A stretch of DNA of 64,000 nucleotides, taken from NCBI GenBank assembly GCA_949288175.1, contig CASEIV010000006.1, forward strand, positions 77 through 64,076, read 5' to 3'. This document shows positions 1 to 47,974 of the stretch, piece after piece. Source of the DNA: an uncultured Eubacteriales bacterium (lineage in GTDB: Bacteria; Bacillota; Clostridia; TANB77; CAG-508). The notes beneath the pieces were generated by a model that saw nothing but the letters and a program-made list of their open reading frames with translations, was not told where the DNA came from and did no database searches. The position numbers and the translations under genes are program-made. Each line of letters opens with the position of its first letter. The stretch's first letter is position 1.

Positions 1-3000
1 CCACTATATTCTTTGTATTTTCCGTCTTCTGCTTTACTTGCTTGTTCAAATCCACTAATGACTAATCTATATTTTTCTCCTACTTTTACATCTGCTCCCT
101 CTCTTGTTTCTGTAATATCTTCCACTTTTGTTAATGTCTTTGTGATGTTTTCTGGTACTGCATTAGTATCTAACATTTTTACAGTAATATTATCCTGATT
201 GGTTAATACTGTTGAAACATCATAATATTTGTCTGTTACTGAAAAGTCTACTGTTAGTGTTTTTTCTTCATAATTGATATCTGTTGATGAATAATTATAT
301 ACAAATTCTGGTTTGATAAAGTCTGCAAACATAACATCTTCTGTATTTTGGTCTACTTTTACTTTGTCTTGTACAATATTGTCTATTCTTGCTCCAAAAT
401 CTGATACAGCACCTGCTCCTGTTTCTGCTCCTGTATATGTGTCACTACTTGCAACTTCCATATTGCTATTTCCATACGTAGTATCTGATAAAGTTCCTTG
501 ATCATAAGTTCTTTGTGCGACTTCAATTCGAATATTTCCACTCCACTCTTTGTATGATTTTCCTATTCTTATTGTTGCCTCTTCAAAATTTGATAGTGTT
601 ACGACTTGCAATACATCTTTTGCACCTGTTCTAGCATTGTCTGTTTGTGTTGCACTTCCTACTTCTTTTGTCACAACATCTGTAATTTCTATATTATCTA
701 TAAATACTTTGATATCATTTGGTGTTAAGGAACTAGTCACATCACTAATATATTCATCTGGACTTACTTCTTGGTTGGTAGTTCCTCTTAATGTAATGTT
801 GATTTTGGGATTATTTGTTTCTGTTTCATCTAAACTTGCTTCTTCTTTTATCCATTCAGTTCTGTATTTGGGTTCAATCTTTCCTCTAGTAAATCCTATA
901 TACGGATCTCCATTCATTGAAAATACTTCGAAGTGTGTTTTGTCTATATAGATAGCTTCTGGTGCTTGGATGATAATAGATCCAGATTTACCTGTACCAC
1001 CAAATATATTTAAACTCATTGACGCTATATTTGTAAAAGCTGGTCCAAGATCTAGATTTGTCATTTCTTTTTCTCCTGTATAATTAAACATACTGCTCAT
1101 ATCTGTTACCTTATTTGTATTGAATTTATCTCCTAAATCTAAACTTCGCATGTTATTAGCACCTGTACCATAGAACATCCAAGTCATATATTCCACATTA
1201 CTAGTATCAAATTTATCTCCTAAATCTAAGTCAGTCATTACTTCTACACCTGTATTTGCAAACATATAACTCATGTCTGTTACTTTACTTGTATCAAATT
1301 TACTTCCTAAGGATAAAAATGATAATTTTTCATATCCCATATTGGCAAACATATTACTCATATTCGTTACATTACTGGTATCAAAATTACTTCCCATCGC
1401 AAAATTTGTCATTAACATTCTACCTGTTGCATTAAACATATAACTCATATCTGTTACATTACTGGTATCAAAATTACTTCCTAAATATAAACTTCTCATT
1501 GTTTCCGTACCAGCATACTCAAACATATGACTCATATTTTGCACATTTCCCGTATTTAATAATTCAATATTTGTTATGATTTCTAACGTCGTAAAATCTC
1601 GTGCACCTATCCAACTAAACAAATAGCTTGAATCTATATTTCCAAATATGTCATCATTACTTCCAATATATACTTTTACTATACCATCTCCTATATATCT
1701 ATCTTCATACCATGCAATAATCGAATGATCTCCCATTGCTGATACATCCCATGCTGTACTATTGGCTCCTGATGTATTTGATACAAATGTAACATTGGTT
1801 ATATTTTGTCTTTCAATATTTGTATTTCCTAAGAATCCACTATTAGCTTCTGTTTCTGTACTCGTACTTCTCAATGTATTAAACACAATAAAATCTTTTT
1901 CTTTATTCCCATTTCCTGATGTATCTAATAACGTACCTTCTGGTATTCTAACCTTTATTTGATTTACTGTTGTGTCAATTCCTGAAAGTGTTAATGTATA
2001 TTCCGTACCATATTGTGCAGTTGAATTTACTCCATCTACAACTCTTTGTTCATTTAGAACTGTACTTGTTAATTGTTTTTCTATGGTGGTGTTTACACTT
2101 CCATTTACAAGAACTTGTATATTTGAAGTTGTCAATGTACTATTTGTTAAATATTTATCTGTTACAACAAATTTCAGTGTTGCCGTTTTTTCTTTTACAT
2201 TTACTGATGAATCGATTTTCTCAATTTCTGGTTTTATAAAATCGACAATTTCTTCGTCTCCTGTGCCATCGGGTTCATCAATTCCCACTGTGATATTTTT
2301 TTGAACATTTGTATTTCCAGATTTATCACTTACCATTCCTGCTGGGAACACAATACTAACTGGTCCACTGTATTCTTTGTATTTTCCATTGTCAATACTT
2401 GCTTTTTCAAATCCACTAATAACGAATCTGTATTTTTCTCCTATTTTTACCTCTGTTCCATCTCTTGTTTCTGTAATATCTTGCACCTTTCTTAAAGTTT
2501 TGGTTAAGTTTTCAGGTACTACATTTGTATCTAACATTTTTACGGTTATGTTCTCTGCATTTGCTAACACTTCCGAACTTTCAAAATATTTATCTGTTAC
2601 TGAAAAATCTACCGTTAATGTTTTTTCTTCATGATTGATATCTGTTGATGAATACTGATATGTAAATTCTGGTTCTATGTAATCGATAAACATTGCATTT
2701 GTTGTATTTTTATCTACTTTTGTTGCATCTTCTATCTGGCTATCTGTTCTACTTCCATTTTTCTCTATGTCCATATTGCTATTACCATAGGTTGTATCTG
2801 TTAAAGTTCCTTGTTCTACTTCTATTCGAATATTTCCACTCCACTCTTTGTAGTCTTTTCCTGTTCTTCTCGTTGCTTCTTCAAAATTTGATAGAGTTAC
2901 AACTTGTAATACATCTTGTGCTCCTGTTCTTGTATTTGCTATTTGTGTTGCAGTTCCGACTTCTTTTGTAACAATATCGGTGATTTCTGTATCATCTATA

Positions 3001-6000
3001 TATACTTTGATATCATTTGTTGTTAATGAACTGGTGACATCACTAATATATTCATTACTTGCTACTTCTGTATTTGTGGTTCCTCTTAAGGTAATATTCA
3101 TTTTTGGATTATTTATATCTGTTTCATCTATTTGTGTTGATTCTTTCAACCATTCTGTTCTGTATTTTGGAGTAATATTTCCTTCCAAAAGCTTGATTGT
3201 TGTACTTGAATTAGCATTTAATTTAAAATTTGTATTATCACTATAGATAGTTTCTGGTGCTAATATAATAAAAATACCTGAATAATCGAATATCCCCGTG
3301 TTTATGTCCGCTATCTTTGTAAAAGCTGGTCCCAAATTTAAAGTTTTTATTCTTTGTTCAGAAGACGTAGAAAACATTGAAGTCATATCAGTCACATTAT
3401 CTGTGAAAAACTTATCTCCTAAAACTAAACTTATCATTTTTTGACTTCCTGTCATCTCGAACATATGACTCATATTGGTTACTTTGCTTGTGTCAAATTT
3501 TTCTCCTAAATCCAAACTCGTCATTGACTTATATCCTGTATAAGAAAACATATAACTCATATTGGTTACATTACTTGTATCAAAGTTTTCTCCCAGATTC
3601 AAACTCGTCATTGAATTATATCCTGTATAAGAAAACATATAACTCATATTGGTTACATTACTTGTATCAAATTTATCTCCTAAATCCAAACTCGTCATTG
3701 AATTATATCCTGTACCCATGAACATATAGCTCATATCTGTTACCTTACTTGTGTCGAATTTATCTCCTAAATATAAATCTATCTTCTCTGAACTAAATCC
3801 TGTTCTGTAAAACATATAGCTCATATTTGTTACGCTACTTGTATCAAATTTGTCTCCTAGTTCTAGACTATCCATTCTACCATATCCTGTAAATGAAAAC
3901 ATATTACTCATATCTGTTACATTACTTGTATCAAATTTATCCCCTAAATCTAAACTTGTCATATATGTAAGTCCTGTACTTTCAAACATATTACGCATAT
4001 CTGTTACATTACTTGTATCAAAATTATTTCCCAAATCCAACCTTGTCATGGATTTACTACCTGTCCCATAAAACATATGACTCATATTAGTTACTTTGCT
4101 TGTATTCAGTAATCCTATGTTGGTAATCGTTTCTGCTGCTCTACCTAAATATTCTCCTAGCCATGCAAACAAATAACTTGAATCCATATTTGCATATATT
4201 GTTTCATTACTACCTATATATACTTTTACACTTCCATTTTCATTTGTTTCATACCATGCTAATATTGACTTATTTTCCCCTGCTGTTACATCCCATGCTG
4301 TACTATTTATATATGTATCAGTTGAAGCATCATATACATCTTCTGGTATATAATCCATAAATGTGACGTTATCTACTTTTTCTCTTTGTATATTGGTATT
4401 TCCTAGAAAAGTACTTGTTTTATTTGTTTCTGTACTTGTACTTTTCAACATGTTTCGTAAAATGATTGTTCCTCTCGTAAATTCTATGGTTTCATTTGAG
4501 TTTGCATTCAACTTAAAATGTGTACTATTTTGGTAGATTTCTTCTGGAACTTGGATAACAATTTCTTTAGATTTACCTGTACTTAAAAACATGTTTATAT
4601 TGTCTTCTGATATTTTTGTAAAAGCTGACCCTAAATTTAAACTTGTCATTGCACTTGCACCCGTGCTACTAAACATATAGTTCATATTAGTTACATTACT
4701 CGTATCAAATTTTTCTCCTAAATCTAAAGTTTTCATCGATCTATACCCTGTATTGTCAAACATATTTTGCATATTTATTACATTTCTTGTATCAAATTTT
4801 TCTCCCAAGTCTAAACTAGTCATTGCACTGCTACCTGTTGAAAGGAACATATAACTCATATCTGTTACTTTACTTGTATTAAACTTTTCTCCTAAGTCTA
4901 AATTAGTCATTGAATAAAATCCAGTCCTCATAAACATATGATTCATATCTGTTACATTACTTGTATCGAAATTCCCCCCCAGGTCCAAGCTTGTCATTGC
5001 ACTTTCACCTGTACTAGAAAACATATAACTCATGTTCGTTACATGGCTAGTATCTAATAGTTCAATATTTGTTATTGTTTCTGTTGATTTACAATAAGAT
5101 GAGAACCCTATATATGAAAATAAATAACTTGAATCTGTATTAGCATAGATTTTTTCATTACTACCTATATACACCTTTACCGATCCATTACCATTATTTT
5201 CATACCACGCAATAATAGAATTATCTTCCTCTGCTGATACATCCCATGCTTTATTATTTATATAGGTATTTGTTGAAGCATCATATACATCTTCAGGTAT
5301 GTTATCTACAAATGTTACATTATCTATTTTTTCTCTTTGAATAGTTGTATTTCCTAAAAAAGTAGTACCATTTATTTCTGTACTTGTACTTCTTAACATA
5401 TTTCCATCAGTAATAGCCATTGTTTCTATTCCAGAACTACTTGGTATATCATTTTCTATTTCTTCATTTGGTAATTCATTTGGTTCTACTGCCAATATAT
5501 ATCTTATTGTTTGATTATTTTTTGAGAAAGTTGTATAGATGTATTCTTTATTCACTGTACTTTCCATTGCAACAATTTGGTTATCTTCTTGTATGGTGTA
5601 TATCGTTGCAAGTGTATTTTCTTCTGTATTTTTTGTTTTTATTACAATTGACTCATTATATATACTTGGATCATATTCCATTTTTTCTTCTTCAATGCGT
5701 GTTCCATCTTTTAGCATAATGGTTGTTATCGTTGTATTGTCTGGTGTCGTACCTTCTGTTATACTTTCTACATTTTCATTTTCTTTTGCATTTTTTGCAT
5801 TGATATCTTCTATAATGCTATTTTCTTGTATGTTTGTATTTTCATTTTCTGCAATTTCATTTCCTTCTGTTTCATTTTCTACTGCTGTATCTTCTTCCTC
5901 ATTGTTCGCTACATCACTTATTAAGTTTTGTGACATTACAGTTTTTTCTGATATAAGATTGCCATCTACATCAAAAGTTCTTCTAACAATTTGATATACA

Positions 6001-6808
6001 GATACTTCATATGCTTTTTGCATAGTTTGTGTATCACTTGGTAACTGAATTTCTGATAATGTTGATAAATCTATCTCTTTAATATCCACTTGTGCTTCTA
6101 GTGGCATATATCCTGTTACAATAACAGTGTCATCGAACTCTACTTTTTCTTCTGTTGTTTCACCTTCTGTTGTTTCATTTTCTGTTGTTTCATTTTGTAT
6201 TGTTTTGCTTTCTGTTAATTCGTTTTCCATTGTTTCGTTTTCCGTTGTTTCGTTTTCTGTTGTTTCGTTTTCTGTTATTTCATTTGTTGAATTTTGCTCT
6301 TTTGTTTCTTGATTTGTTTTCCCTTCCTCTGTTATTGTTTCTTCTGATGTTTCCTCTTCCGTTTTCTTTTCAGCTAATAATTCTTTGTTGTAAAGTGTAA
6401 TGATTTGACCATCTTCTGTCTCTATTTCTTTTTTATCATAATCTGTTTGTAATTGTACTTTTAAATCGTCCACTTCAGTTTGTGTTAATGTAAGTGTTTT
6501 ATCAGCATTTTCGTCATTCATTACCACTTCTGCACCATCAGTTGTATAATATTTCGTTACAATATTTCCATTTACTGCTGTTGGCAAATCAAGCAGATAG
6601 TTTCCATCTTGTGTTTCAGTAGCATCCACTGTTATTTTTTGTAGCTCTAATGTTTCACTTTTATCAGAAATTTCTAGTTCAACTTGTATGACATTTTCTG
6701 CTCGTGATCTTCTGACATATGTATATGTACCAATTAAAATAGCAATTGCCATAATGAATATAACGATATTTCTTATTTTTTTGACGATTAATTTATTTTT
6801 TAACATGT
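1..6808 (-). CDS. Giant repetitive cell-surface protein. The N-terminal signal/anchor, Thr/Glu/Asn-rich TENET low-complexity region and blocks of ~26-27-aa DUF285/BspA-like leucine-rich repeats are in the window. The 3' end is partial and continues beyond position 1.
   Basis: The reverse complement from 6808 reads GGAGG-N6-ATG MLKNKLIVKKIRNIVIFIMAIAILIGTY... with no minus-strand stop reported anywhere in 1..6808. The track lists only short plus-strand antisense ORFs in this region. Repeats translate as ...LDLGEKFDTSNVTNMSYMFSYTGY..., matching the DUF285/BspA-type LRR motif. Confidence 0.7.
1000..1560 (-). repeat. DUF285/BspA-like repeat block 1. Tandem ~78-81 bp coding repeats encode 'FDTSxVTNMSxMF' units.
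   Basis: Recurring 'ctcatat(c/t)tgttac(a/c)tt(a/g)ctggtatcaaa(a/t)tt' units are visible on the plus strand. Confidence 0.7.
3280..4130 (-). repeat. DUF285/BspA-like repeat block 2. It includes two almost identical consecutive 81-bp units at about 3540-3700.
   Basis: Near-identical tandem units are visible on the plus strand. Plus ORF 3488..3721 shows the duplicated peptide NSSLNYILYKKTYNSYWLHYLYQ. Confidence 0.75.
4560..5060 (-). repeat. DUF285/BspA-like repeat block 3
   Basis: Same repeat unit family as blocks 1 and 2. Confidence 0.65.
6150..6300 (-). repeat. 15-bp tandem coding repeat (unit tgtttcgttttctgt, about 8-9 copies). It encodes the (T)ENETT pentapeptide repeats of the giant protein.
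   Basis: Direct reading of repeated 15-mers. The translation is TENETTENETTENETMENELTE... Confidence 0.75.
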
Positions 6809-6965: not shown

Positions 6966-6993
6966 AAAAAGCGCTATTTTTAGCGCTTTTTTA
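6966..6993 (-). terminator. Rho-independent terminator-like hairpin (aaaaagcgct-attttt-agcgctttttt), bidirectional
   Basis: Perfect GC-containing palindrome flanked by A and T runs. Confidence 0.5.
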
Positions 6994-6997
6994 GACT

Positions 6998-7283
6998 TGT
7001 CGCATTAGGTTCGTTTGTCTATGCGACATTCCGACGTGCAACTTTGTTTTGTCGCATCAGGATCTGATCCCAATGCGACATTATCCCAATGCGACATTGG
7101 GTTCATTGAGACCTGGTCCTTCTTGGTCTTTTTGGTACAACGTTGTTTTTTCTATACAATAAAAAAGCTGAGACAGAAACTTTCACTGTTTTCCACCCCA
7201 ACTATTAGCATTCAATCATTTTGTCCCATTGAGTTCGTTTTGTCAATGCAATGTCGCATTAACAAACGAACCTAATGCGACAT
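6998..7283. repeat. REP-like palindromic repeat cluster, family 1 locus A. Several copies of the unit TGTCGCATTAGGTTCGTTTGTCTATGCGACATT and its partner AATGTCGCATTGACAAACGAACCTAATGCGACATT, plus a family-2-like GAGACCTGGTCC segment.
   Basis: The same about 33-nt hairpin unit (stem AATGTCGCAT/ATGCGACATT) recurs at 13454, 15706, 20020, 20850 and 36677. It creates spurious MSMRH ORFs. Confidence 0.75.
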
Positions 7284-8558
7284 TTAAAATTCCTGAACCC
7301 TATTTTTCTTATGAAGCATCGGTAAACTTTTGTATATAATCTTAAAACATGAGAATTTTTCTAATTCGTTGTCTTCCAAACAATCTAAATAAATGTCTAA
7401 TTCTTCCAAATTTTTACATGCAGATATGACTGCTGGATGTAAATTTGTTTCAAACATTAATTCAATCCCTAATAAAATAGCACTTCTTCTAGATTTTCCT
7501 TCTTTTTTATACATTAAGTTATAACCTTCTTTAAATCTAGCTCTAATGGCATTTTTATATTTATCTAATGGACATATATACTTTTCTTCTATCAAATCCG
7601 AAATTTTTGTACCTTTGTGTTCTAATATTTCGTTTTTTATTTCTGCTTTTGTGTATGGTAAATACACTTTACCATCTTCTTCTGAAATTATCAGTGTTTT
7701 ATTGTCTTCCAAGTTGTTTTCAATTACTTTTTCTTCATCAATAATAAAGTTTAATCCTTCTTCATTTGCGACAATTTCTGTTAAGTTAGTTAATTTAAAA
7801 TTCACGACATTATCTTTTCTTTCAAGATTATCAATCACATAATTAATTTTAAAATCTTGATTCGTAATAATTTCATAGTCTTGATGGTCTCTGTGTAATA
7901 CTAAATATACATCATCACTAATGACTCTAATTTCAGTATCTCTAACAATAATATAGGATGAACCACTATTTTTTGTATATAGGTTGTACTCTGTTTTTTG
8001 CATTTCAATTCTATATTGATTTTCTTCTAAAAAGACATCTGTAACGCCATCTTTTGCATTTATTTTAATTCCTTCATTAATATCTTTTGGTTCTTCTACT
8101 TTTTTTGTTCTTCTTTTTCTCGTTTTTGTTTCTTTTTTCAAAATTTCCGCAAAAACACTTGTATCTGTTTCTTCTTTAGCTTTTTTTCTAGTTTTTTTCT
8201 CCTTATTTTCGTCATCCTCGTTTAACGTTTCTATGTTCAATTCTGCATTTAATGCTTTCTTTTTGTCTTTTTTTATTTCTGTTTCTGTAAGTTCATTTAT
8301 GATTTTTTGACCTTGTTCTATTTTTTGTCTCATCGAATCTATGCTAGCAATCATTTCATTTTTTCTAGCATCATCAAATTCAAATGTTTTTTCTTCTTTT
8401 TTCTTTCTTCCTCTTTTGCTTTTTGGTGGGTGTTGGACTACATTTTCTTGTTCTTCCATTGGTTCAAAGTCAAATTTATAGATATCATCTTCCGAATTTT
8501 TTTGTGTTCTTTTTCTTGTTCGAACTTCTTTTGTGTCTTCTAATAATTTCCTTGCCAT
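7284..8558 (-). CDS. Hypothetical Lys-rich protein. Start reassigned to MARKLL (GGAGGG-N5-ATG).
   Basis: Long ORF with an RBS. There are no recognisable domains. N-terminal half is highly basic (K/E-rich). Confidence 0.55.
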   Translation of the reverse strand: MARKLLEDTKEVRTRKRTQKNSEDDIYKFDFEPMEEQENVVQHPPKSKRGRKKKEEKTFEFDDARKNEMIASIDSMRQKIEQGQKIINELTETEIKKDKKKALNAELNIETLNEDDENKEKKTRKKAKEETDTSVFAEILKKETKTRKRRTKKVEEPKDINEGIKINAKDGVTDVFLEENQYRIEMQKTEYNLYTKNSGSSYIIVRDTEIRVISDDVYLVLHRDHQDYEIITNQDFKINYVIDNLERKDNVVNFKLTNLTEIVANEEGLNFIIDEEKVIENNLEDNKTLIISEEDGKVYLPYTKAEIKNEILEHKGTKISDLIEEKYICPLDKYKNAIRARFKEGYNLMYKKEGKSRRSAILLGIELMFETNLHPAVISACKNLEELDIYLDCLEDNELEKFSCFKIIYKSLPMLHKKNRVQEF

Positions 8559-8693
8559 TTTACCCTCCAATCTTTCGTATTTTTAACTTTATATTTTATC
8601 CTAATTACATTAATGTTGTACATAATTTCATACAATTTACATATGTCATAAAACCTGTATATTTACAAGTTTTATGACATATTATTTGTTTTA

Positions 8694-10881: not shown

Positions 10882-10958
10882 TGGTAGCGAAGATGTGATT
10901 CGAACACATGACCCTTCGGGTATGAACCGAATGCTCTAGCCAACTGAGCTACTTCGCC
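10882..10958 (-). tRNA. tRNA-Met (CAT anticodon, elongator type), CCA encoded
   Basis: The reverse complement is GGCGAAGTAGCTCAGTTGGCTAGAGCATTCGGTTCATACCCGAAGGGTCATGTGTTCGAATCACATCTTCGCTACCA. It folds into a cloverleaf with anticodon loop TTCATAC, as in Bacillus elongator tRNA-Met. Confidence 0.85.
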
Positions 10959-11675: not shown

Positions 11676-13433
11676 CTATTCCTTTATTAAAACAGCTTTA
11701 ATTCTTCTAATTCCTGAAGAACTTGATTCCTCTTTTTTAATCTTAAATCTTCCCATATCTCCTGTATGCGTTACGTGAGGTCCTCCACAAATTTCTTTAC
11801 TAAAATCACCAATGGTATATACCTTTACTTTGTCTCCATATTTATCTGTAAATAAACCAATAGCACCTAAATTTTTAGCATCTTCATAACTCATTTCTTC
11901 GCAAGTAACTTGTAAATCTCTTTGAATTTGTTCATTTACTAAATCTTCTACTTGTTGAATTTCTTCTTTTGTCATTTTTTGTGGATGTGTAAAGTCAAAA
12001 CGTAATCTTTCCTCTGTAATATTAGAACCACTTTGTTTTACATGGTCACCTAAAACTGTTCTTAATGCTTGATGTAATAAATGAGTTGCTGTATGATATG
12101 CAATCGTTTTTTCATTTTGGTCAGCAAGTCCACCTTTGAATTTTTGTGTACTTCCTTGTCTTGATTTTTCTTGATGTTCCTTAAATAATTTTTCAAATCC
12201 TTTTAAATCTACTGTCATATCATTTTCATCTGCCAATTCCTTTGTTACCTCTGGTGGGAATCCATAGGTGTCATATAATCTAAATACAACTTTTGCATCA
12301 ATTTCTGTGTTTCCGTTTTCTTTTGCTTTTTGCATTTCTTTTTGAAATTCTCTTTCTCCATGTGTTAATGTTTTTACAAACTTGTCTTTTTCTTCATTGA
12401 TGACATTTTTGATTGTTTCTCTATTTTGTTCTAGCTCTGGATACATTTCTTTTAAATTATCTACATTGATATCTATTAAATTTGATAATTCTGATAAATC
12501 AATTTGTAATTTATTCATATGTCTTATCATTCTACGAATTAATCTTCTTAAAACATATCCTCTATCAATATTACTTGGTCTTCCACCATCAGCAATAATC
12601 ATCATGCTTGAACGTAAGTGTTCTGCAATAATTCTTCTACTTTCTATATTATCTACTTTTTGTAGTTCTTGTACTTTTTCCATAACTGGTAAGAATAATT
12701 CTGTATCAAATGGTGTTTCTTTACCTTGTAATAACATGGTCATTCTTTCTAACCCTAAACCAGTATCGACATTTTGTTGTTTTAATTTAGAATATCCATT
12801 TTTATCTTTGTAATATTCCATAAACACATTATTCCAAATTTCTACATATTTACCACAATCGCAAGAAGGTTGGCAATCTGGTCCACATGCTGGCTTACCT
12901 GTATCATAGAACATTTCTGTATCTGGTCCACATGGTCCTTCTTCTCCTGCAATCCACCAGTTGTCATCTTTTCCATAAAAATAAATATGACCATCTAAGA
13001 TTCCAGCCTCTTTCCATACTTTTGCTGAAACCTCATCTCTTGGGCAATCCTCATCTCCTGCAAAACAAGTAACAGATAACTTTTCTACTGGTATTTGTAG
13101 CTCTTTCGTCAAAAACTCAAAACTCATTTTAATAGACTCTTCTTTGAAATAATCTCCTAAAGACCAATTTCCAAGCATCTCAAAATATGTTAAATGTCTA
13201 TTATCACCAACCTCATCAATATCATTTGTTCTTACACATTTTTGATAATCTGTTAATCTTGTACCCTCTGGGTGTTTCTCACCTAATAAATAAGGCACTA
13301 ATGGTTGCATACCAGCAGTTGTAAACAAAACAGATGGATCATTTTCTGGTATCAATGAAGCTGATGGAATAACTGCATGTCCATGCTTTTTAAAAAAATC
13401 TAAATATTTGTTTCTAATTTCAATTGCTTTCAT
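11676..13433 (-). CDS. alaS: Alanine--tRNA ligase, short form (585 aa). It has the catalytic and tRNA-recognition region plus a compact editing domain, but no C-Ala domain.
   Basis: MKAIEIRNKYLDFFKKHGH...FTTAGMQP...class II AlaRS motifs. Editing-domain HxxxH (HTATHLLH) and CGGPHV motifs are present. The ORF ends right after the editing domain. Confidence 0.85.
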   Translation of the reverse strand: MKAIEIRNKYLDFFKKHGHAVIPSASLIPENDPSVLFTTAGMQPLVPYLLGEKHPEGTRLTDYQKCVRTNDIDEVGDNRHLTYFEMLGNWSLGDYFKEESIKMSFEFLTKELQIPVEKLSVTCFAGDEDCPRDEVSAKVWKEAGILDGHIYFYGKDDNWWIAGEEGPCGPDTEMFYDTGKPACGPDCQPSCDCGKYVEIWNNVFMEYYKDKNGYSKLKQQNVDTGLGLERMTMLLQGKETPFDTELFLPVMEKVQELQKVDNIESRRIIAEHLRSSMMIIADGGRPSNIDRGYVLRRLIRRMIRHMNKLQIDLSELSNLIDINVDNLKEMYPELEQNRETIKNVINEEKDKFVKTLTHGEREFQKEMQKAKENGNTEIDAKVVFRLYDTYGFPPEVTKELADENDMTVDLKGFEKLFKEHQEKSRQGSTQKFKGGLADQNEKTIAYHTATHLLHQALRTVLGDHVKQSGSNITEERLRFDFTHPQKMTKEEIQQVEDLVNEQIQRDLQVTCEEMSYEDAKNLGAIGLFTDKYGDKVKVYTIGDFSKEICGGPHVTHTGDMGRFKIKKEESSSSGIRRIKAVLIKE

Positions 13434-13453
13434 TTAAAATTCTTCCCTTCTTT

Positions 13454-13526
13454 TGTCGCATTAGGTTCGTTTGTCTGTGCGACATTTTTGGTCATGTCGC
13501 ATTGGGTTCGTTTGTCTATGCGACAT
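13454..13526. repeat. REP-like family 1 locus B (two hairpin units), about 20 nt upstream of the alaS RBS
   Basis: TGTCGCATTAGGTTCGTTTGTCTGTGCGACATT and TGTCGCATTGGGTTCGTTTGTCTATGCGACATT. Confidence 0.7.
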
Positions 13527-13574
13527 TTTATATAATAACATTAGCATTATACTGTATTTATGAAAAAAAATCAA

Positions 13575-13612
13575 GGGTCCGTTGGGACCTAGTCCGTTTG
13601 GGTCTGTTTCAC
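13575..13612. repeat. Family 2 repeat (GGGTCCGTTGGGACCTAGTCCGTTTGGGTCTGTTTCAC). It is related to 30958..31045 and to 7100..7140.
   Basis: Sequence similarity among the three loci (GG-TCYRTTRGGACCTAGTCYGTTTRGGG). Confidence 0.5.
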
Positions 13613-13869
13613 ATTTCTACTAAAATTAAATCTTCTCCTATACATTTTACATTTTTCCACGGAATGGATATTTCATTATTCGTTTTAAATATATTCATTA
13701 ATTTTTTTCCTGATCCTGGAACAATAATATGTGTAATATTACCTGTTTCTAAATCTGCACATACATCTTGTACATATCCTAACCTTCTTCCATCAGTAAT
13801 ATTGATGACTTCTTTATGTTTAAAGTCTAATCCTTTTTCTTGCATTATGTACCTCCTTTTATCGGTCAA
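13609..13869 (-). CDS. ylmC: YlmC/YmxH family sporulation protein (PRC-barrel)
   Basis: MTDKRRYIMQEKGLDFKHKEVINITDGRRLGYVQDVCADLETGNITHIIVPG matches YlmC/YmxH. Confidence 0.7.
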   Translation of the reverse strand: MTDKRRYIMQEKGLDFKHKEVINITDGRRLGYVQDVCADLETGNITHIIVPGSGKKLMNIFKTNNEISIPWKNVKCIGEDLILVEM

Positions 13870-14113
13870 AATTTCATTATTTATAATAATATATTCATAA
13901 ATTTATAAAAATTGACATTGTATTTTCTTTCTTAGTTTATCTTTCGATATGGAGCCTCTTTAAATATTATTTCTAAAGTTCACTCTTAGAAAACCAAAAA
14001 GAAACAAACCATTCCTTTAGGTCTGTCCCTTTTGTTCAGTTTTTTAACATTGAGTAACATTGAGTGCAGGTAAAAACGTTCAATTTTTGAACGTTTTGGC
14101 CTGTCCCTATCGT

Positions 14114-14887
14114 TCACTTATATAATCTTTTGATGTGTTGTATAGCTGTTTTTTCTAGTCTTGATACTTGTGCTTGTGATATGCCGATTTCTTCTGCTAC
14201 TTCCATTTGGGTTCTACCGTCAAAAAATCGTTTATTGATAATCATTCTTTCTTTTTCATTTAATTTTTCCATTGCTCCTTTTATTGTAATTTTTTCTGCC
14301 CATAATTCATCCGTATTTTTACTATCTTTTACTTGGTCCATGATATAGATACTTTCTGAACCATCATTATATACTGGCTCTTGTAAAGAAACAGGGTCTT
14401 GTATGGCATCCAAACTAAAGGCAATATCTTCTTTTGTTACTTCCAATTCTTTGGCAATTTCCTCTACATTTGGCTCTTTTCCATGTTCTTTTGTATATCG
14501 TTCTTTAAATTGTATCACTTTATACGCTAAATCTCTTACTGATCTACTGACTCTTATACTATTATTGTCTCGTAAATATCGTTTTACTTCTCCAATAATC
14601 ATAGGTACTGCATATGTGCTAAATTGTACATTTTGACTTAAGTCAAAATTGTCAATTGCTTTAATCAATCCCACACATCCTACTTGAAATAAGTCATCTG
14701 CATTTTCTCCTCTTCCGTAAAATCTTTGTATGACGCTTAATACTAATCTTAAATTTCCATTGATAAATGTATTTCTTGCTTCTTCATCTCCTGCTTTTAT
14801 TTTTACAAAAAGTGCTTCCTTTTCTTCTTTACTTAGTAATGGTAAATTTGATGTATTTACTCCACAGATTTCAACTTTATTTAGCAA
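14114..14887 (-). CDS. sigG: RNA polymerase sporulation sigma factor SigG (TTG start after GGAGG)
   Basis: MLNKVEICGVNTSNLPLL... sigma-70 regions 2-4. Gene order spoIIGA-sigE-sigG. Confidence 0.85.
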   Translation of the reverse strand: MLNKVEICGVNTSNLPLLSKEEKEALFVKIKAGDEEARNTFINGNLRLVLSVIQRFYGRGENADDLFQVGCVGLIKAIDNFDLSQNVQFSTYAVPMIIGEVKRYLRDNNSIRVSRSVRDLAYKVIQFKERYTKEHGKEPNVEEIAKELEVTKEDIAFSLDAIQDPVSLQEPVYNDGSESIYIMDQVKDSKNTDELWAEKITIKGAMEKLNEKERMIINKRFFDGRTQMEVAEEIGISQAQVSRLEKTAIQHIKRLYK

Positions 14888-14950
14888 AAAGAAAACCTCC
14901 TTTTAAAAATACTTACTATCAGTATTTCCTAAAAAGAGATTTCTATTCGT

Positions 14951-15697
14951 TTATCCAATTTTACTCACAATATCTTTTTTCATCTTATTAATAATTTTCT
15001 TTTCTAATCTTGATATATAACTTTGCGAAATGCCAAGTTCATCTGCTACTTCTTTTTGCGTTTTTTCTTTACCTGTTTTAAATCCAAATCGCATTTCCAT
15101 GATATTTTTTTCTCTATCATTTAATTTTAAGACAGCTGCTCGAAGTAAAGTTTTATCTACTTCATCTTCTAAATTTCTAGATGTAATATCTGGCTCTGTT
15201 CCTAATATATCTGAAAGTAATAGCTCGTTTCCATCACCATCTTTATTTAATGGTTCATCTATAGAAATTTCACCTTTAATTTTATTGCTTTTTCTCAAAT
15301 GCATCAAAATTTCATTTTCTATACATCTAGAAGCATATGTTGCCAATTTTATTTTCTTTTCATTATTAAAGGTATTTACCCCTTTCATAAGGCCAATAGT
15401 TCCAATAGATATCAAATCTTCAATACCAATCCCTGTATTTTCAAATTTTTTGGCAATATATACAACCAATCTCAAATTTCTTTCCACTAACACCTGTCTT
15501 GCTTCTAAATTATTTTCTTCTGATAATTTTTTTATATAAAATTCTTCCTCTTCTAGTGGTAATGGTGGTGGGAGTGTTTGGCTACCTGCTATGTAAAATA
15601 TCGGCAAATATTCTATCTCATCATCATCATTCAAATATTTGGCACATATGGTATGGATACTATTTTTCACAAAATCAATTATTTTCATTTTAATCAA
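14951..15697 (-). CDS. sigE: Pro-sigma-E sporulation sigma factor
   Basis: [12 protein letters not shown]...[39 protein letters not shown] is nearly identical in pattern to B. subtilis SigE. Confidence 0.85.
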
Positions 15698-15705
15698 CTC
15701 CTTTT

Positions 15706-15827
15706 TGTCGCATTAGGTTCGTTTGTCTACGCGACATTTTTTGTCTCGTTGGGTTCGTTTGTCTACGCGACATTTTTGTTTTGTCACATTGATGTCGCAA
15801 ACAAAAACGAACCCAATGCGACACTAC
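15706..15827. repeat. REP-like family 1 locus C (three or four units) between the spoIIGA stop and the sigE start
   Basis: TGTCGCATTAGGTTCGTTTGTCTACGCGACATT x2 plus GATGTCGCAAACAAAAACGAACCCAATGCGACAC. Confidence 0.7.
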
Positions 15828-16711
15828 ATTAATTCAATTCCTAATAAAGCCCTATACTCTCCCCTTTTTGTTAATGATTTGTTATAAATCCCAATGATGA
15901 CATTTTCCTTTGTTTTCCTCTCTTCTTCATTCTCTATAACAACTTTCTCCGCTTTTATTCCTAGTAACATTCCATTTTGTTTTCCAAGTGATGAAAATGG
16001 AATCACTTTTAATTTGGGCATATATTCTTCTTTGATATTTTTAGGTATTTCACTGAAATCACCTCCTAAAATATTTTCTAGATGATTTAATATTTCTTTT
16101 GGTATACAATCATATAACAGTGTGTGTTCTACTACAATAACAGGTGTATTGGTAATTGGTTCTTTTAAAAAATTTCCTGTATCCATCATTGCTTTTGTTT
16201 CTATTTCTTTATGGTTTAATTTTATCTTGATATGGCAATACATATCTTTTGCAGATATTTTATTTTTTACCACCTTAAAACCAATAGTAATAATGACAAA
16301 TGCAATGATGGCTGATATAAAAATGACCTTCAAGGAATTAGCATTTAATACTAATCCATTATTTCTTAATATTTCTTGTGGCTTTACAATATAAATTAAC
16401 GCAAAAGCTGCTCCCCCAAAAACAAAAGAGGTTAAATAAAATATTAATGTAAATTTGAATAATTTTTTGACACTCTTCGGATTAAATGCTATGTAGATAA
16501 TCATCAGAGATAATACAAATTTTAAAAATATATTCGAATATATTTTTAAAGCTGAAATATAAGCAATAATGGTATATATTGCTCCTACTAGACTTGCTAA
16601 AATTAATCGTGTATGTTTTATTTGTATTTTTAAAATAACACCTGTAGCAAATAAAATAATATAATTCATTAACAAATTTTCTATGAATACAACATCTATA
16701 TATATTGTCAT
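15824..16711 (-). CDS. spoIIGA: Sigma-E processing peptidase SpoIIGA
   Basis: MTIYIDVVFIENLLMNYIILF... multi-TM N-terminus and the MDTGN aspartic protease motif. Confidence 0.8.
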   Translation of the reverse strand: MTIYIDVVFIENLLMNYIILFATGVILKIQIKHTRLILASLVGAIYTIIAYISALKIYSNIFLKFVLSLMIIYIAFNPKSVKKLFKFTLIFYLTSFVFGGAAFALIYIVKPQEILRNNGLVLNANSLKVIFISAIIAFVIITIGFKVVKNKISAKDMYCHIKIKLNHKEIETKAMMDTGNFLKEPITNTPVIVVEHTLLYDCIPKEILNHLENILGGDFSEIPKNIKEEYMPKLKVIPFSSLGKQNGMLLGIKAEKVVIENEEERKTKENVIIGIYNKSLTKRGEYRALLGIELM

Positions 16712-16853
16712 CTGTTAATCACCTGCTTATCTATTCTACTACCTATTTATTAAAAAAACTGTCCTTTCTTATTGTAAAAAAAAAGAAATAATCGATAAAT
16801 TTCGATTACTTCTTTATGTTTATAGAGTTTTTTCTGTATGATTTGATATTTCA

Positions 16854-17975
16854 TTACATATTTTTATTTTTATTCTTTCTCAAGAAAGATGGTATATCTA
16901 AATCATTTTGTGAATTGTTTACTTCTGAACTTGCTGGAATAGAATTAATTTTCTTTTCCCAAGTTTTTGATACAATATTATCTACTCCAATACTTGAGAT
17001 TGGTTCATTTTTTTCAAATCCTGTTGCAATAACGGTGATTTGAATTTCATCTTCCATTGTAGGATCTGTTACTGTACCAAAGATAATATTTGCTTCTGGG
17101 TCAACACTGCGTTGAACTAATTCTGCTGCTGTATTTACTTCATGTAATCCTAAGTCTTCTCCACCAGTAATATTGATGATAACACCTTTTGCTCCTTCAA
17201 TTGATGTTTCTAGTAATGGACTTTGGATAGCTTCTTTTGCTGCATCTTCTGCTCTGTTTTCTCCTCCTGCTCTACCAACACCCATATGTGCCATACCTTG
17301 ATTTAACATGATTGTTTTTACATCAGCAAAGTCTAAGTTTACAAGTCCTGGAATAGCGATTAAGTCTGATATACCTTGTACACCTTGTCTTAATACATCA
17401 TCAGCCATTTTGAATGCTTCTATGATTGATGTTTTTCTATCAATAATTTGTAATAGTTTATCATTTGGTATAACAACTAATGTATCTACTTTTCCTTTTA
17501 AACTTTCAATTCCTCTTTCTGCTTGTGAAAGTCTTTTCTTTCCTTCAAATGTAAATGGTTTTGTAACAACACCAATGGTTAAGATTCCCATTTCTTTTGC
17601 AGCTTGTGCAACAACTGGTGCAGCTCCTGTACCTGTTCCTCCACCCATTCCAGCTGTAACAAATACCATATCTGCTCCTCTTAATACTTCTGCTAATTCT
17701 CCTTTGCTTTCTTCTGCTGATTGTGCTCCAATATCAGGGTTTGCTCCTGCTCCTAATCCTCTTGTAATTTTTTCCCCTATTTGAATTTTTGTATTTGCTT
17801 TTGAAGTTTGAAGTGCTTGTCTATCTGTATTAACAGCAATAAAGTCTACTCCTTTAATTCCTGCATCTATCATTCTATTAACGGCATTGTTTCCTGCTCC
17901 TCCAACACCTATAACCTTTATTGTTGCTGTTCCATCCATCATTGTAATATTATTATCATCATTGTAATCCATCAT
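16854..17975 (-). CDS. ftsZ: Cell division GTPase FtsZ
   Basis: [17 protein letters not shown]...[17 protein letters not shown] tubulin/FtsZ signature. RBS GGGAGG. Confidence 0.9.
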
Positions 17976-18020
17976 TTAGTTTTTCCTCCCTTATCTTTTT
18001 TATATTTTAAAATTAATATC

Positions 18021-19250
18021 TTATGTATAAAAAAACTCTTTTATTTTTTCTAAAATCGTTTTAAATACATTTTCATTGTTTTGTGTATCTATACTGCTTG
18101 AAACAGTTTTTGCAAATGGTCTTGCTGCTATATATCTAACTAATGCATAACTTGTCCTATATGTTGGTTTTACAGTACTGATTGCTCTTCCTGTTGAAAT
18201 TTTGACTGGAATATTTAAATTGATTTTTCCTGCTACATCACTTTTATTGATATTAACAATGCCTTGTCCTGTTAAAACAACATTATTAATTTTATGTTTT
18301 AATCCATTATTGGTTATATCCTTATTAATAATTGAAAACATTTCTTCTATTCTTGCTTCAATAATTTCTATTAATTCAGAACTTTTGATAATCCTATTTT
18401 TGTTTTCATCTTTTGATGTATTTAATATAATGTCATTATCATTATCAATAAAAGATTTTAATGCCAATCCATATTGTCTTTTTAATTTGTCTGCTTCTTC
18501 TTCTGAAATATTTAATACGACTGCAATATCATTTGTGATATTGTCTCCTCCCAATGGGATGGAATTAGTGTATATAAAACTACTACCTTCAAAAACACCT
18601 ATATCAATATTCCCTGCACCTATATCTAATAACATGATGTTATCATGTAATTCATTACTATCTAATATTAAGTTTCTTTCTGCTAATGTGATTGGTACAA
18701 TTCCATCAATTTCTAAATCTGCTTTTTTAAATATATTGTGTAGTTGTCTTACATAATCTTTATCTGCTAATATAATTTGAGCACTAATGGTAAAACTTGA
18801 ACTTAAGTTTCCTACTGGATCTGTTACGACTGTTCCATTATCTAATGTAATTTTATCTGGAACAATATCAATTAATGTCTTTCCATCTGGTATTTCAATG
18901 TCTTTTACTTGCATAATGGCATTTTGTACATCTCTTACAGATACTCCAGAATACTTGTCCTTTACCTCTTTGGTTATCGAATTTTGGACAATTGTTACAT
19001 ATTTTCCTGGAATCGTTACATATGCTGAATTGATTTTTAAGTTGGTTTCTTCTTCAGCATCTTTTATTGTTTTGGCTATACTTAAGCTTATTTCGTCTTC
19101 ATTAATAATTTTGCATTTTTTTAGTCCACTACATTTATATGAGGTATTGCTAATAATCTCAATTTGACCAAAATTGTTGACTTCCCCTACAACGGTACAA
19201 ACCTTACTTGTGCCTATGTCAATACCTACTATGATATCACCGATTGCCAA
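18021..19250 (-). CDS. ftsA: Cell division protein FtsA (TTG start after GGAGG)
   Basis: (L)AIGDIIVGIDIGTSKVCTVVGE... actin-like ATPase motifs. The track ORF extends upstream without an RBS. Confidence 0.8.
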   Translation of the reverse strand: MAIGDIIVGIDIGTSKVCTVVGEVNNFGQIEIISNTSYKCSGLKKCKIINEDEISLSIAKTIKDAEEETNLKINSAYVTIPGKYVTIVQNSITKEVKDKYSGVSVRDVQNAIMQVKDIEIPDGKTLIDIVPDKITLDNGTVVTDPVGNLSSSFTISAQIILADKDYVRQLHNIFKKADLEIDGIVPITLAERNLILDSNELHDNIMLLDIGAGNIDIGVFEGSSFIYTNSIPLGGDNITNDIAVVLNISEEEADKLKRQYGLALKSFIDNDNDIILNTSKDENKNRIIKSSELIEIIEARIEEMFSIINKDITNNGLKHKINNVVLTGQGIVNINKSDVAGKINLNIPVKISTGRAISTVKPTYRTSYALVRYIAARPFAKTVSSSIDTQNNENVFKTILEKIKEFFYT

Positions 19251-19591
19251 GTTAATTCCTCCATTTATTAGTATATTTTTTCTAAGTGTATATATATTAC
19301 ATTTTAAAAAAAATGTCAATAGTAATTGTAATATTTTTGTAACATTTTTGCAATAATGTTGTAACACTTAAAAAAGTTATTTTTCTTTTCTTATTTTGTT
19401 TTTTTCCTGATTTTTATTGTATTTTTTCATTTAAATAAGAGTTAATCTTAACCCTCTTTTTATGGACCATATTGTTAATTTTAAGACAAACTCTTATTTA
19501 TTTTTATATTAACCTATGTTTTTCTGATTATAACACAATCTTCGCTTCTAGCTTCTATTTTTCCCTATATGGAGTTTTTTATATATCCATA

Positions 19592-20005
19592 TTAAGCTTC
19601 TTGTTTATCTTCTTTATTATCTTTTTCAGATGCTTTTTCCTTTTTAGATGCTTTTTCTTTTATCATATCTGACCATTTTTCTACATAATATCTTCTAATG
19701 GTTCCTAGATTCATAAACATTCTCCAAACAAAAACAACAATGGCAGCTAAATAAATATCCACATTTAATTTTTGACCTAAAATAGTCAATAATATAGCTA
19801 AAATTGCATTTCCAAAAAATCCTGATATGAATATTTTTAAATCAAAATTCTTTTTGATAACAGAAGCAATTCCTCCAAATACAGAATCCAATGCTGCTAT
19901 AATAGCAATCGCTAAATAACTTGAATACGTATAAGAAATTATTGGTGCATTTAGGCCTAAAATTGCTCCTAAAACACACCCTATTAATATTGCAATAAAT
20001 ATCAT
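19592..20005 (-). CDS. sbp: Small basic protein Sbp (DUF1290)
   Basis: 137-aa membrane protein in the conserved position between the DUF881 genes and ftsA, as in B. subtilis ylxW-ylxX-sbp-ftsA. Confidence 0.6.
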   Translation of the reverse strand: MIFIAILIGCVLGAILGLNAPIISYTYSSYLAIAIIAALDSVFGGIASVIKKNFDLKIFISGFFGNAILAILLTILGQKLNVDIYLAAIVVFVWRMFMNLGTIRRYYVEKWSDMIKEKASKKEKASEKDNKEDKQEA

Positions 20006-20019
20006 GTTCTTCCCATTCC

Positions 20020-20096
20020 TTTCTTTCTATGTCTCATTGGGATCGTTTGTCTATGCGACATTTTGGCTGTGAATGTCTCATTGACAAACGAACCTA
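20020..20096. repeat. REP-like family 1 locus D
   Basis: TGTCTCATTGGGATCGTTTGTCTATGCGACATT ... AATGTCTCATTGACAAACGAACCTAATGCGACATT. Confidence 0.7.
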
Positions 20097-20105
20097 ATGC
20101 GACAT

Positions 20106-20807
20106 TTATTCTATATATCTCGTTTCAATCTCTCCTTTATATTTTCCGATTGTTATATCATTATCTTTTTCAATGGTTACTGTATGTCCTAAAGTTTGTA
20201 ATTCTTCTACTTTACCTCCAGTTCCTGTTACTGCACTCTCCATATGAGATTGATTTCCTATCACTTTTATTACATAAGGTTCTAATATTCTTTGTCCATT
20301 GACTTTTATAAAAGAACCTGATGTAATATATACGATATCTGTTGTATTTACAATTCTTTCATCATTAATCGATATTGCCTCTGCTCCTGCAAATTTTAGT
20401 GCATTTACTATAACTAATAAATCATCAGCTGTAATAGATGCCATATTTTCACCACTTTTTAAAGTCATAATGATTCCTTCTCCATGCACATCTGTTAATC
20501 CTAACAATGTGTTGGTTTGTTCTAATTCTTCTTGCACTAATTGGCTGGCTTCATTACTTGATTTCTCATCATTTTTATATTCTTCAATTCTTTGTGTTAC
20601 TTCTTGATATTGTGCATCAATCTCTTCATATCTTGTTTTCCAATTTGCTAATTCTGTCTTTAATTCTGATTCCTGCATCTCTTCAATTGCAGTTATATCT
20701 GTCTCATTTACTACTTTAAACTGCATCATCATAACGGTTACTAATGCAAAACAGGCAATCCCTATTGTAATTGTCATAGCAATTTTACCTTTTTTCATCT
20801 TTTTCAT
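20106..20807 (-). CDS. DUF881 family protein (YlxW/YlxX-like). The start is reassigned to MKKMKKGK because the upstream MSMRH extension is repeat-derived.
   Basis: AGAEAISINDERI... DUF881 signature and an N-terminal TM. Confidence 0.7.
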   Translation of the reverse strand: MKKMKKGKIAMTITIGIACFALVTVMMMQFKVVNETDITAIEEMQESELKTELANWKTRYEEIDAQYQEVTQRIEEYKNDEKSSNEASQLVQEELEQTNTLLGLTDVHGEGIIMTLKSGENMASITADDLLVIVNALKFAGAEAISINDERIVNTTDIVYITSGSFIKVNGQRILEPYVIKVIGNQSHMESAVTGTGGKVEELQTLGHTVTIEKDNDITIGKYKGEIETRYIE

Positions 20808-20849
20808 TCCTTTCTTTAGTCCAAATTGGCTATCCAATTGAAGGACAAT

Positions 20850-20940
20850 TGAGCATTGACTTCGTTTTGTCCCATTGAGTTCGTTTGTCTGTGAGACATT
20901 TTGTGAATGTCGCATTGACAAACGAACCTAATGCGACATT
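20850..20940. repeat. REP-like family 1 locus E
   Basis: ...GTCCCATTGAGTTCGTTTGTCTGTGAGACATT TTGTG AATGTCGCATTGACAAACGAACCTAATGCGACATT is almost identical to the right half of locus A. Confidence 0.7.
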
Positions 20941-22755: not shown

Positions 22756-22774
22756 TTGTTTTTTGCTCCATTGG

Positions 22775-41076: not shown

Positions 41077-41084
41077 TAAAAAAG

Positions 41085-41112: not shown

Positions 41113-41117
41113 TTTTT

Positions 41118-47970: not shown

Positions 47971-47974
47971 ACCT

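Follow-up and report, generated by a model that had tools for sequence, protein, structure and literature searches.

A REP-like family of palindromic intergenic repeats confined to one genus of uncultured sporulating Clostridia

The DNA analysed here is a 64,000-nucleotide stretch, hereafter the window, from an uncultured Eubacteriales bacterium (GenBank assembly GCA_949288175.1, contig CASEIV010000006.1, positions 77 to 64,076). It is a chromosome segment with 29% GC from a spore former and carries ftsQ, two DUF881 genes, a DUF1290 gene, ftsA, ftsZ, spoIIGA, sigE, sigG, a short alaS, ispG and ispH. Short palindromic repeats, termed units below, are found between its genes at six loci, A to F. 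The genes that flank the units in the window are on the minus strand, and mRNA sense is read accordingly. We show that the repeats are a real, undescribed and lineage-specific family, which resembles the repetitive extragenic palindromes (REPs) and is confined to one uncultured low-GC sporulating Clostridia genus.

A first-pass annotation, made from the letters of the window, had proposed a 33-nt motif as the repeat. This motif has 10 matches with at most three mismatches in the window, compared to 0.00 expected from shuffled sequences, and the core GACAAACGAACC has 12 matches, compared to 0.07 expected. A covariance model (CM), trained on 48 distinct units and run unfiltered across all 64 kb, recovered 13 units at 44–64 bits, one loop variant at 28.6 bits and one partial unit; the next best match scored 10.8 bits. 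The window total of 13 strong units, one variant and several fragments is confined to the six loci, all within the first 37 kb. The claim of a dispersed intergenic palindromic family at these six loci is thus confirmed, and by the unfiltered CM search the list of loci is exact and complete for the window.

The motif was also sought elsewhere, and it was found in six related metagenome-assembled genomes (MAGs) of uncultured Clostridia/Eubacteriales, which form one genus by their average amino acid identity of 85–96%. An exact-pattern scan of one genome per GTDB species yielded 35 blocks from these MAGs (the L-numbers below denote individual blocks), which together with the window form a census set of 336 kb. 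In it, a Hamming scan counts 122 units, 28 of them identical to the consensus. The closest relative sequence is contig CASEIZ010000050.1, which is 92–95% identical to the window, and the 21 CASEIZ blocks (L008 and L021 among them) hold 75 of the 122 units. Copies cluster by region: 17 of the 37 exact CASEIZ matches lie on a single 145-kb contig. All units, 14 in the window and 122 in the census set, are intergenic or overlap gene ends. A metagenome scan with a 22-mer core returned 13 stretches, only one of which (L036, a short contig) contains real units. The unit was not found in phage, plasmid and viral-contig collections, and a literature search with core sequences gave chance primer matches only. 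Rfam at the gathering threshold has no family for the unit, its sole match being tRNA-Met, and at E-values up to 5 over positions 13300–21100 (loci B to E) it returned only sub-threshold miRNA-type noise on long hairpins.

The unit is 31 nt long and consists of two 8-bp arms, TGTCGCAT and ATGCGACA, which enclose an asymmetric, conserved 15-nt core, AGACAAACGAACCTA. Its general pattern is TGTCGCAT-N15-ATGCGACA, and its commonest form in mRNA sense is AAAA-TGTCGCAT-AGACAAACGAACCTA-ATGCGACA-AAAA, the 5' flank having A in 79–113 of the 122 units at positions -4 to -1. Five of the eight pairs in the stem show no variation. At the central stem pair, 95 units have G-C, 9 have C-G or T-A and 15 have G.A; at the closing pair, 91 have T-A and 29 have C.A. 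The 5' half of the loop (AGACAAACGA) is near-invariant, and the 3' half is variable at three positions. We distinguish sense (S, type 1) units, oriented as the flanking genes, from anti (A, type 2) units in the opposite orientation. S units have an 8-bp stem, an A at position 9 and A-rich flanks. A units usually have a T at position 9 and AA...TT flanks, which lengthen the stem to at least 11 bp. A second loop type, TGGGATCAGATCCTG, occurs in 10 copies in the window and the loci; it corresponds to an inverted A-S dimer minus its centre, forms a 14-bp hairpin and looks like a collapsed inverted dimer. Finally, the hexamer GACAAA is present twice per unit, at the loop start and at the 3' end plus flank. 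Many full units are trailed by half-units (the 3' 17–19 nt of the unit), which, judging from unit flanks and locus alignments, probably arise by slippage between these GACAAA direct repeats.

The placement of the units relative to genes follows strict rules. Of the spacers in the window and the loci, units are present in 42 of the 203 that are co-directional, in 9 of the 23 that are divergent and in 1 of the 23 that are convergent, the sole convergent case being a weak copy with 7 mismatches. In the 42 occupied co-directional spacers the order is always A before S (A, AA, AS, ASS, AASS, S, SS and so on), and an S unit never lies ahead of an A unit. Inverted clusters that contain both types account for nine of these spacers (about six independent loci) and all read A then S, for which we calculate a chance of ~0.005. 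The first A unit begins 0–5 nt past the upstream stop codon or overlaps it (TAA/TGTCGCAT, TAG/TGTCGCAT). The unit nearest to the Shine-Dalgarno sequence (SD) is always S and ends 12–39 nt ahead of the start codon, most often at 17 nt. The majority of clusters directly adjoin the SD downstream of them, and clusters that consist of A units only are at least 84 nt away from the next start. The overall grammar is therefore stop codon, anti unit(s), sense unit(s), Shine-Dalgarno. Since 12–39 nt leave no room for a promoter, the SD-proximal S units, and with them most sense units, are presumably transcribed into 5' untranslated regions (UTRs) or intercistronic RNA. Among the genes downstream of S units are alaS, sigE, ispG, ldh (L-lactate dehydrogenase), yigZ and the genes for RNase R and alpha-amylase, and no common regulon was found for them. 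A promoter role of the units was rejected: the scan gave only weak junction matches (TTGTCA-16-CAAAAT, TAGACA-18-AAAAAT), and promoter-like counts were not above those of shuffled sequences. Likewise, the terminator scan did not call the units as intrinsic terminators (GC-rich stem, 3–8 nt loop, U-tract of at least 5).

Neighbouring units are head-to-tail in 42 pairs and inverted in 9, and they form tandem arrays of up to four units with a period of 32–43 nt and gaps of 1–12 nt. Regularly spaced palindromic repeats, together with recurring open reading frames (ORFs) that begin MSMRH, could suggest a degenerate CRISPR-like array, a small-RNA gene or a peptide gene. We reject these explanations, which retain next to no credence. 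CRISPR spacers are ~25–40 nt long, whereas a start-to-start distance of 32–43 nt for 31-nt units leaves no spacers; moreover, the units are self-complementary, no cas-like genes are among the annotated neighbours, and the first-pass annotation had also judged the repeats not to be CRISPR. Dispersal of the units over six loci inside operons speaks against all three readings, as does the lack of an Rfam family at the gathering threshold or at E-values up to 5 (loci B to E). The recurrent MSMRH starts are as had been stated and read TTG-TCx-ATG-CGA-CAT at 7015, 36695 and 20921, but the ORFs diverge after five residues and one is out of frame in the ortholog through 32-nt indels. They arise as by-products of the sequence of the unit itself.

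Locus A is closed by a terminator-like hairpin, AAAAAAGCGCTAAAAATAGCGCTTTTT (6966–6990; hairpin and T-run on both strands, -14 kcal/mol, z -3.95), which is kept in L008, and its units are found between this hairpin and a stop codon. The hairpin is followed by a perfect-consensus S unit, TGTCGCATAGACAAACGAACCTAATGCGACA (6998–7028, minus strand, CM score 55.8 bits), a loop-variant unit of the second type, TGTCGCAT-TGGGATCAGATCCTG-ATGCGACA (7050–7080, minus; 28.6 bits over the span 7046–7084, fold of -20 kcal/mol), and a duplicated 5' arm fragment, AATGTCGCATTGGGAT (7085–7102, minus), at the junction of a 2.9-kb indel relative to CASEIZ (L008). Further on are a 5'-truncated half-unit, TTGACAAAACGAACTCAATGGGACA (7216–7247, minus; partial CM match at 7228–7247 to model positions 11–29, 12.5 bits), and an A unit (7252–7282, plus; 53.6 bits), which starts 1 nt past the stop of the gene at 7284–8570.

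Locus B consists of two S units upstream of alaS. The proximal one (13454–13484, minus, 62.1 bits) is 20 nt from the alaS ATG and 4 nt from its SD (AAGGGAAG), the distal one (13495–13525, minus) scores 62.7 bits, and a conserved sigma-70-like promoter, TTGATT-17-TATAAT (13546–13574, minus), lies upstream of both. Sequence conservation between the window and L035 starts exactly at this promoter. Locus B, located between promoter and SD, is therefore the 5' UTR of alaS. The first-pass annotation had assigned all loci to operon-internal spacers or 3' UTRs, an assignment to which locus B is an exception and which for locus A needs the qualification that the units lie between stop codon and terminator. 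Immediately upstream of the alaS promoter, a GACCC/GGTCC-rich motif, GACCCAAACGGACTAGGTCCCAACGGACCC, is found at 13576–13605 (minus); other spacers (locus A; L016) contain related (G)GACC motifs and CTGTCCCYAACGTTCAAT repeats. The alanyl-tRNA synthetase itself (11676–13433, minus) is the short 585-aa form (NCBIfam PRK01584). A lone tRNA-Met gene lies at 10882–10958 (minus), with a perfect consensus promoter, TTGACA-17-TATAAT, at 11034–11006.

Locus C lies between spoIIGA and sigE. An S unit (15706–15736, minus, 60.5 bits) ends 17 nt ahead of the sigE ATG, a second S unit with four mismatches (15742–15772, minus, 44.3 bits) is in tandem with it at a 36-nt period, and an A unit (15793–15823, plus, 46.0 bits) abuts the spoIIGA stop (TAG/TGTCGCAT). 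The units could be operators of a known global regulator, either boxes for Spo0A, whose 0A box has the consensus TGTCGAA or TTTGTCRAA, or a CIRCE-like operator in 5' UTRs. The arm TTTGTCGCA agrees with TTTGTCRAA at 8 of 9 positions, the organism sporulates, one locus lies within the spoIIGA-sigE-sigG operon, and the inverted repeat of locus B sits between promoter and SD. However, the unit at the spoIIG locus is between spoIIGA and sigE and not at the promoter, and the downstream genes are housekeeping genes with neither a sporulation nor a stress theme. An invariant C at a critical position of the box, a conserved 15-nt core and arrays of up to four units are moreover alien to both 0A boxes and CIRCE, and we consider such an operator highly improbable. 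As an 0A box the unit was rejected, its core being invariably TGTCGCA, TGTCTCA or TGTCCCA and its loci not being sporulation-gene promoters. Boxes of the cre and LexA types show only half-site resemblance in our own comparison with their consensus sequences.

Locus D holds an S unit (20030–20060, minus, 59.8 bits) that ends 24 nt ahead of the ATG of the DUF1290 gene, and an A unit (20074–20104, plus, 53.2 bits) 1 nt past the stop of a DUF881 gene; the two pair with each other at -34.2 kcal/mol. At locus E an S unit of the TGTCTCAC...ATGGGACA variant (20868–20898, minus, 58.1 bits) is adjoined by a degenerate 3' half-unit (AAACGAAGTCAATGCTC..., 20843–20867, minus), which shows the GACAAA direct repeat and the partial-unit duplication of this locus. 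The A unit of locus E (20908–20938, plus, 57.9 bits) extends over the last codons and the stop of the second DUF881 gene (20928–21644), for which it provides the stop codon (distance -11). The longest-ORF call for the DUF881 gene between loci D and E (20106–20921, minus) is over-extended by ~41 codons through two repeat units; an ATG preceded by an SD gives a product of ~230 aa. Locus F comprises a perfect-consensus S unit (36678–36708, minus, 63.6 bits), which ends 17 nt ahead of the ispG ATG, and a distal S unit (36721–36751, minus, 63.0 bits) at a 43-nt period.

The hairpin that the first-pass annotation had read from the unit is borne out by folding. Single units have predicted energies of -10.6 to -15.8 kcal/mol, with positions 6995–7035 folding at -10.6 kcal/mol (z -2.6) and positions 7245–7290, the A-type hairpin, at -15.8 kcal/mol (z -4.9). 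The longer hairpins, which had been expected from partner units, were recovered as well: the inverted partners on the plus strand at 7252, 15793, 20074 and 20908 form long REPIN-like hairpins with their neighbours, at -34 to -50 kcal/mol and z -6.4 to -7.7. The SD is left unpaired in the predicted folds, all of which have z-scores between -2.6 and -7.7. The number of T residues in the next 8 nt averages 4.1 after terminal A units and 2.5 after A units that precede an S unit, a weak trend, and from its modelled fold the A-type hairpin may act as a weak attenuator.

Comparison of relatives indicates that the units are retained. Orthologous units are 94.4% identical (27 pairs), with the differences concentrated at four positions. 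In a threshold-free alignment of spacers, unit nucleotides are 92.5% identical with 9% in gaps, compared to 85.6% identity and 34% in gaps for the other nucleotides of unit-bearing spacers, and fourfold degenerate sites of flanking genes are 62–84% identical. Because the units are more conserved than both spacers and fourfold sites, they are retained beyond the neutral expectation, which could reflect either selection or gene conversion. Decay occurs as well: one copy in L011 matches its L018 ortholog at 20 of 31 positions.

Relatives differ in copy number. CASEIZ has one extra identical tandem unit at locus D (L021), a partial unit duplication at locus E and, in L035, the ortholog of locus B, extra units upstream of the alaS promoter. 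We infer from these alignments that copy number changes in place by slippage between the internal GACAAA direct repeats. Locus A is 290 nt long in the window and 3.4 kb in CASEIZ (L008 1137–4516), where the 2.9-kb indel encodes two AAA_14/DUF4143 ATPases of 426 and 434 aa, whose genes are absent from the window. Both genes are bounded by units, and the breakpoints of the indel lie in the shared 5' arm ATGTCGCAT, which shows that units can serve as recombination breakpoints for gene gain or loss. As for the proposed mobility of the repeats, the changes observed were expansion and contraction in place and recombination at sites already occupied, but not a clean insertion at a new site. The regulatory role at the RNA level, also raised by the first-pass annotation, is plausible.

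We propose that the family spread as non-autonomous DNA through a putative trans-acting enzyme that recognises the hairpin, and that the transcribed hairpins then persisted as tolerated or useful structures at cistron boundaries. To this reading we assign a probability of roughly 55%. An A hairpin just past the stop codon would serve as a 3' protector or weak attenuator of the upstream cistron, an S hairpin upstream of the unpaired A-rich SD would be a 5' stabiliser or insulator of the downstream cistron, and A copies adjoining the SD would be purged by selection.

Several observations weigh against this proposal. Some arrays lie upstream of promoters or between terminator and promoter (e.g., L010 2773–2911) and may therefore be outside the mRNA, so that transcription is not universal. 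The orientation of the units relative to genes is confounded with their orientation relative to replication, as only three units flank minority-strand genes, all of them sense. Covariation in the stem is weak, with double changes in only 4 cells and 26 of 384 cells unpaired, and the G.A (15) and C.A (29) mismatches are tolerated. The C.A mismatch is moreover commoner in sense (17/79) than in anti (2/25) units, the opposite of what selection on a sense-RNA hairpin predicts. Conservation of the loop is equal in both orientations, which a single RNA-binding function would explain less well than recognition at the DNA level or gene conversion. No clean new insertion at an otherwise empty site (a filled and empty pair) was found among the compared loci, and phmmer and tblastn searches of the 336 kb with IS200, IS608 and RAYT sequences, a weak test, gave no match to a Y1 transposase. 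As to G.U wobble asymmetry as a marker of the functional strand, it received no support, the trend being reversed if anything.

Several of these points would be expected if the units were double-stranded DNA binding sites of a protein specific to this lineage, for example a factor that organises the nucleoid or chromosome, a repressor that acts as a roadblock, or a site-specific recombinase, with the arms as half-sites, the core as an extra contact and the hairpin as incidental. In favour of this reading, what is conserved is sequence and not pairing, the core is equally constrained in both orientations, and mismatched stems are tolerated. Regional clustering of copies (the 145-kb CASEIZ contig, the first 37 kb of the window), arrays outside obvious transcripts and the use of units as recombination breakpoints also agree with it. 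However, a double-stranded site should be blind to orientation, yet A units are excluded near the SD and the order is always A-S. The central pair shows compensatory C-G and T-A variants (9 of 122 units), a half-site spacing of 23 bp from centre to centre is unusual, the downstream genes lack a functional theme, and a candidate binding protein was not identified. We therefore regard a protein-binding site as an unlikely explanation, though one to be taken seriously.

The units could also be selfish or neutral repeats with no host function, moved as single-stranded hairpins by a Y1 HUH enzyme (IS200/RAYT-like) or another nuclease in trans, in which case their orientation would result from insertion into the lagging-strand template and their conservation from gene conversion. 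The sense orientation does put the top strand on the lagging-strand template if genes are co-oriented with replication, as known from IS200/IS605 biology (PMC6006769). Furthermore, 28 of the 122 copies are identical to the consensus, and the collapsed dimers and half-units point to hairpin and slippage processes at the DNA level. A possible nuclease is encoded by multi-copy PDDEXK_2 genes near units, four of five of which have a unit within 500 nt upstream, compared to a baseline of 23% (P ~0.012, on a small and non-independent sample). Against this reading stand the negative Y1 search of the 336 kb, a weak test, and the absence of the GT[AG]G guide tetranucleotide, and the units are kept at orthologous sites across species despite 62–84% identity at fourfold sites, which unconstrained decay would not bring about. 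Abutment to stop codons and exclusion of A units near the SD require selection or an unknown target rule, and the units are depleted in convergent spacers, the safest sites for junk DNA. Repeats of this purely selfish kind are, in our estimate, improbable to a similar degree as a protein-binding site.

The PDDEXK_2 genes, which encode Rpn-like PD-(D/E)XK 'transposases', are located in the window at 33697–34332 (minus) and in the relatives at L010 451–1077 and 1831–2664, L032 7232–7765 and L019 5708–6502, and the window copy is the exception that has no unit within 500 nt upstream. Their association with units is suggestive. In an extended form of our proposal, units would be gene-boundary punctuation, in which A units flag the 3' ends of cistrons, at their stop codons, and S units the 5' ends, at the ribosome-binding sites. 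Inverted pairs would switch between two hairpins and one long one, and the units would be propagated or recombined by the unit-adjacent PDDEXK_2 nucleases rather than by a Y1 RAYT. This form is speculative and we hold it to be doubtful; if true, it would represent a REP-type system in Firmicutes that works with a new partner enzyme.

The family has wider implications. If the stop-anti-sense-SD grammar is functional, it provides a naturally occurring system in which to study the tuning of operon expression by intercistronic hairpins in Gram-positive bacteria; if the grammar reflects the mechanism of insertion, it points to a hairpin-recognising enzyme. On the practical side, the units yield spurious ORFs and mis-extended gene starts, as in the MSMRH ORFs and the over-called DUF881 gene, and they mark recombination breakpoints that make close relatives differ in gene content.

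The spacers of this genus carry several short repeat families. A second, unrelated intergenic inverted-repeat family, built around GGGGACG(G), is found in the window at 22772–22890, 37674–37764, 41082–41115 and 47829–47971, and in L023 upstream of locus F. Its arms of 35–52 nt are 83–98% complementary and 9–46 nt apart, each arm being a small hairpin, TGATGATTTT-GGGGACGGAGC-AAAATCATCA. One copy in CASEIZ takes the place of the sequence that lies upstream of the ispG units. In the intergenic segment 44130–44358, an inverted repeat of 48 nt, 96% complementary and with a GAGGGGCGGGGA core, flanks a 133-nt spacer; the arrangement looks like a miniature inverted-repeat transposable element (MITE). 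An 89-nt segment is duplicated at 24436–24524 and 25344–25432 (94% identity, 908 nt apart) near a DUF4258 gene and may be a duplicated small gene or a toxin-antitoxin-like module. Finally, a giant ORF of more than 2268 aa (1–6806, minus) runs off the start of the window. It has repeats at 999–5144 and 6126–6310, namely 87-nt (29-aa) tandem repeats and, near its 5' end, a run of 15-nt repeats, and it has large paralogs in CASEIZ and CALXEX (L008, L010, L014, L029).

To our knowledge, work on REP-like repeats has dealt almost exclusively with Proteobacteria and a small number of other phyla. Like REPs, BIMEs and REPINs, the family described here consists of ~30–40-nt palindromic units in many intergenic copies, which occur singly, in clusters or as inverted doublets that fold into long hairpins. 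It is likewise predicted to be co-transcribed with genes, with many copies abutting stop codons, its sub-families are distinguished by compensatory stem changes, and it persists at orthologous sites in relatives. A broad survey lists no REP family from Firmicutes, to which our host belongs, and describes REPs as favouring gene 3' ends and unidirectional and convergent spacers (PMC3733652). The Clostridia units, in contrast, prefer the 5' sides of genes and are nearly absent from convergent spacers, and head-to-tail arrays, rare in REPs, dominate (PMC3733652). Their loop is a conserved asymmetric 15 nt, whereas most REP loops measure 2–5 nt. A GT[AG]G tetranucleotide 0–2 nt 5' of the foot of the hairpin defines the GTAG super-family of REPs (PMC6006769, PMC3733652). 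Neither GTAG nor GTGG is found at either end of the Clostridia unit. In the REPIN-RAYT systems of Enterobacteria and Pseudomonas, inverted doublets predominate and the repeats flank a single-copy gene for their RAYT (TnpA_REP), a Y1 HUH transposase; no RAYT match was obtained in the 336 kb, by the same weak test. The likeness to the placement of enterobacterial REP/BIME elements and the RAYT-type transposase, both raised by the first-pass annotation, thus found no support.

A second group, the CGTC-tagged REPs, has no dedicated transposase, and its tag is sometimes TGTC (Di Nocera et al. 2013, PMC3733652). The Clostridia family shares with it an 8–9 bp stem, a terminal TGTC-like motif, the lack, as far as the 336 kb show, of an associated transposase gene and restriction to a lineage. 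However, the TGTC of the Clostridia unit is paired with GACA in every unit and is not an unpaired tag, so that a CGTC-type tag, too, is missing; its loop has 15 nt and not 4–5 nt, and it is often clustered and arranged in tandem arrays, which is seldom the case in the CGTC families (PMC3733652).

Outside the REPs, small non-coding repeats that are found near gene starts and ends, are co-transcribed and form stable RNA hairpins also include the Correia elements of Neisseria and the pneumococcal BOX elements. These have been reported to affect how mRNAs are processed, or how stable they are, and to change the expression of the genes next to them. They are 100–300 bp long and are modular or have 26-bp terminal inverted repeats and a TA duplication, whereas the Clostridia units measure 31–39 bp, show no evident target duplication and obey a strict orientation grammar. 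With CIRCE, the operator of HrcA, the family shares, as locus B shows, a fixed-spacer inverted repeat located between promoter and SD; CIRCE, however, is found at a few heat-shock operons, unlike the Clostridia unit, which occurs at dozens of unrelated genes, in both orientations and in tandem arrays. The arms could also be counted as terminal inverted repeats of 8–11 bp, but the unit is far smaller than known MITEs, and neither a consistent target duplication beyond the A-rich flanks nor an insertion sequence with unit ends was seen in the 336 kb. Thus, the family is REP-like in behaviour and lies outside the GTAG/RAYT and the CGTC REP families. A compact, AT-rich lineage of sporulating Clostridia also keeps ~31-nt palindromes, and it does so under its own rules: a large conserved loop, head-to-tail arrays, the order of stop codon, anti unit, sense unit and SD, and retention above the neutral level.

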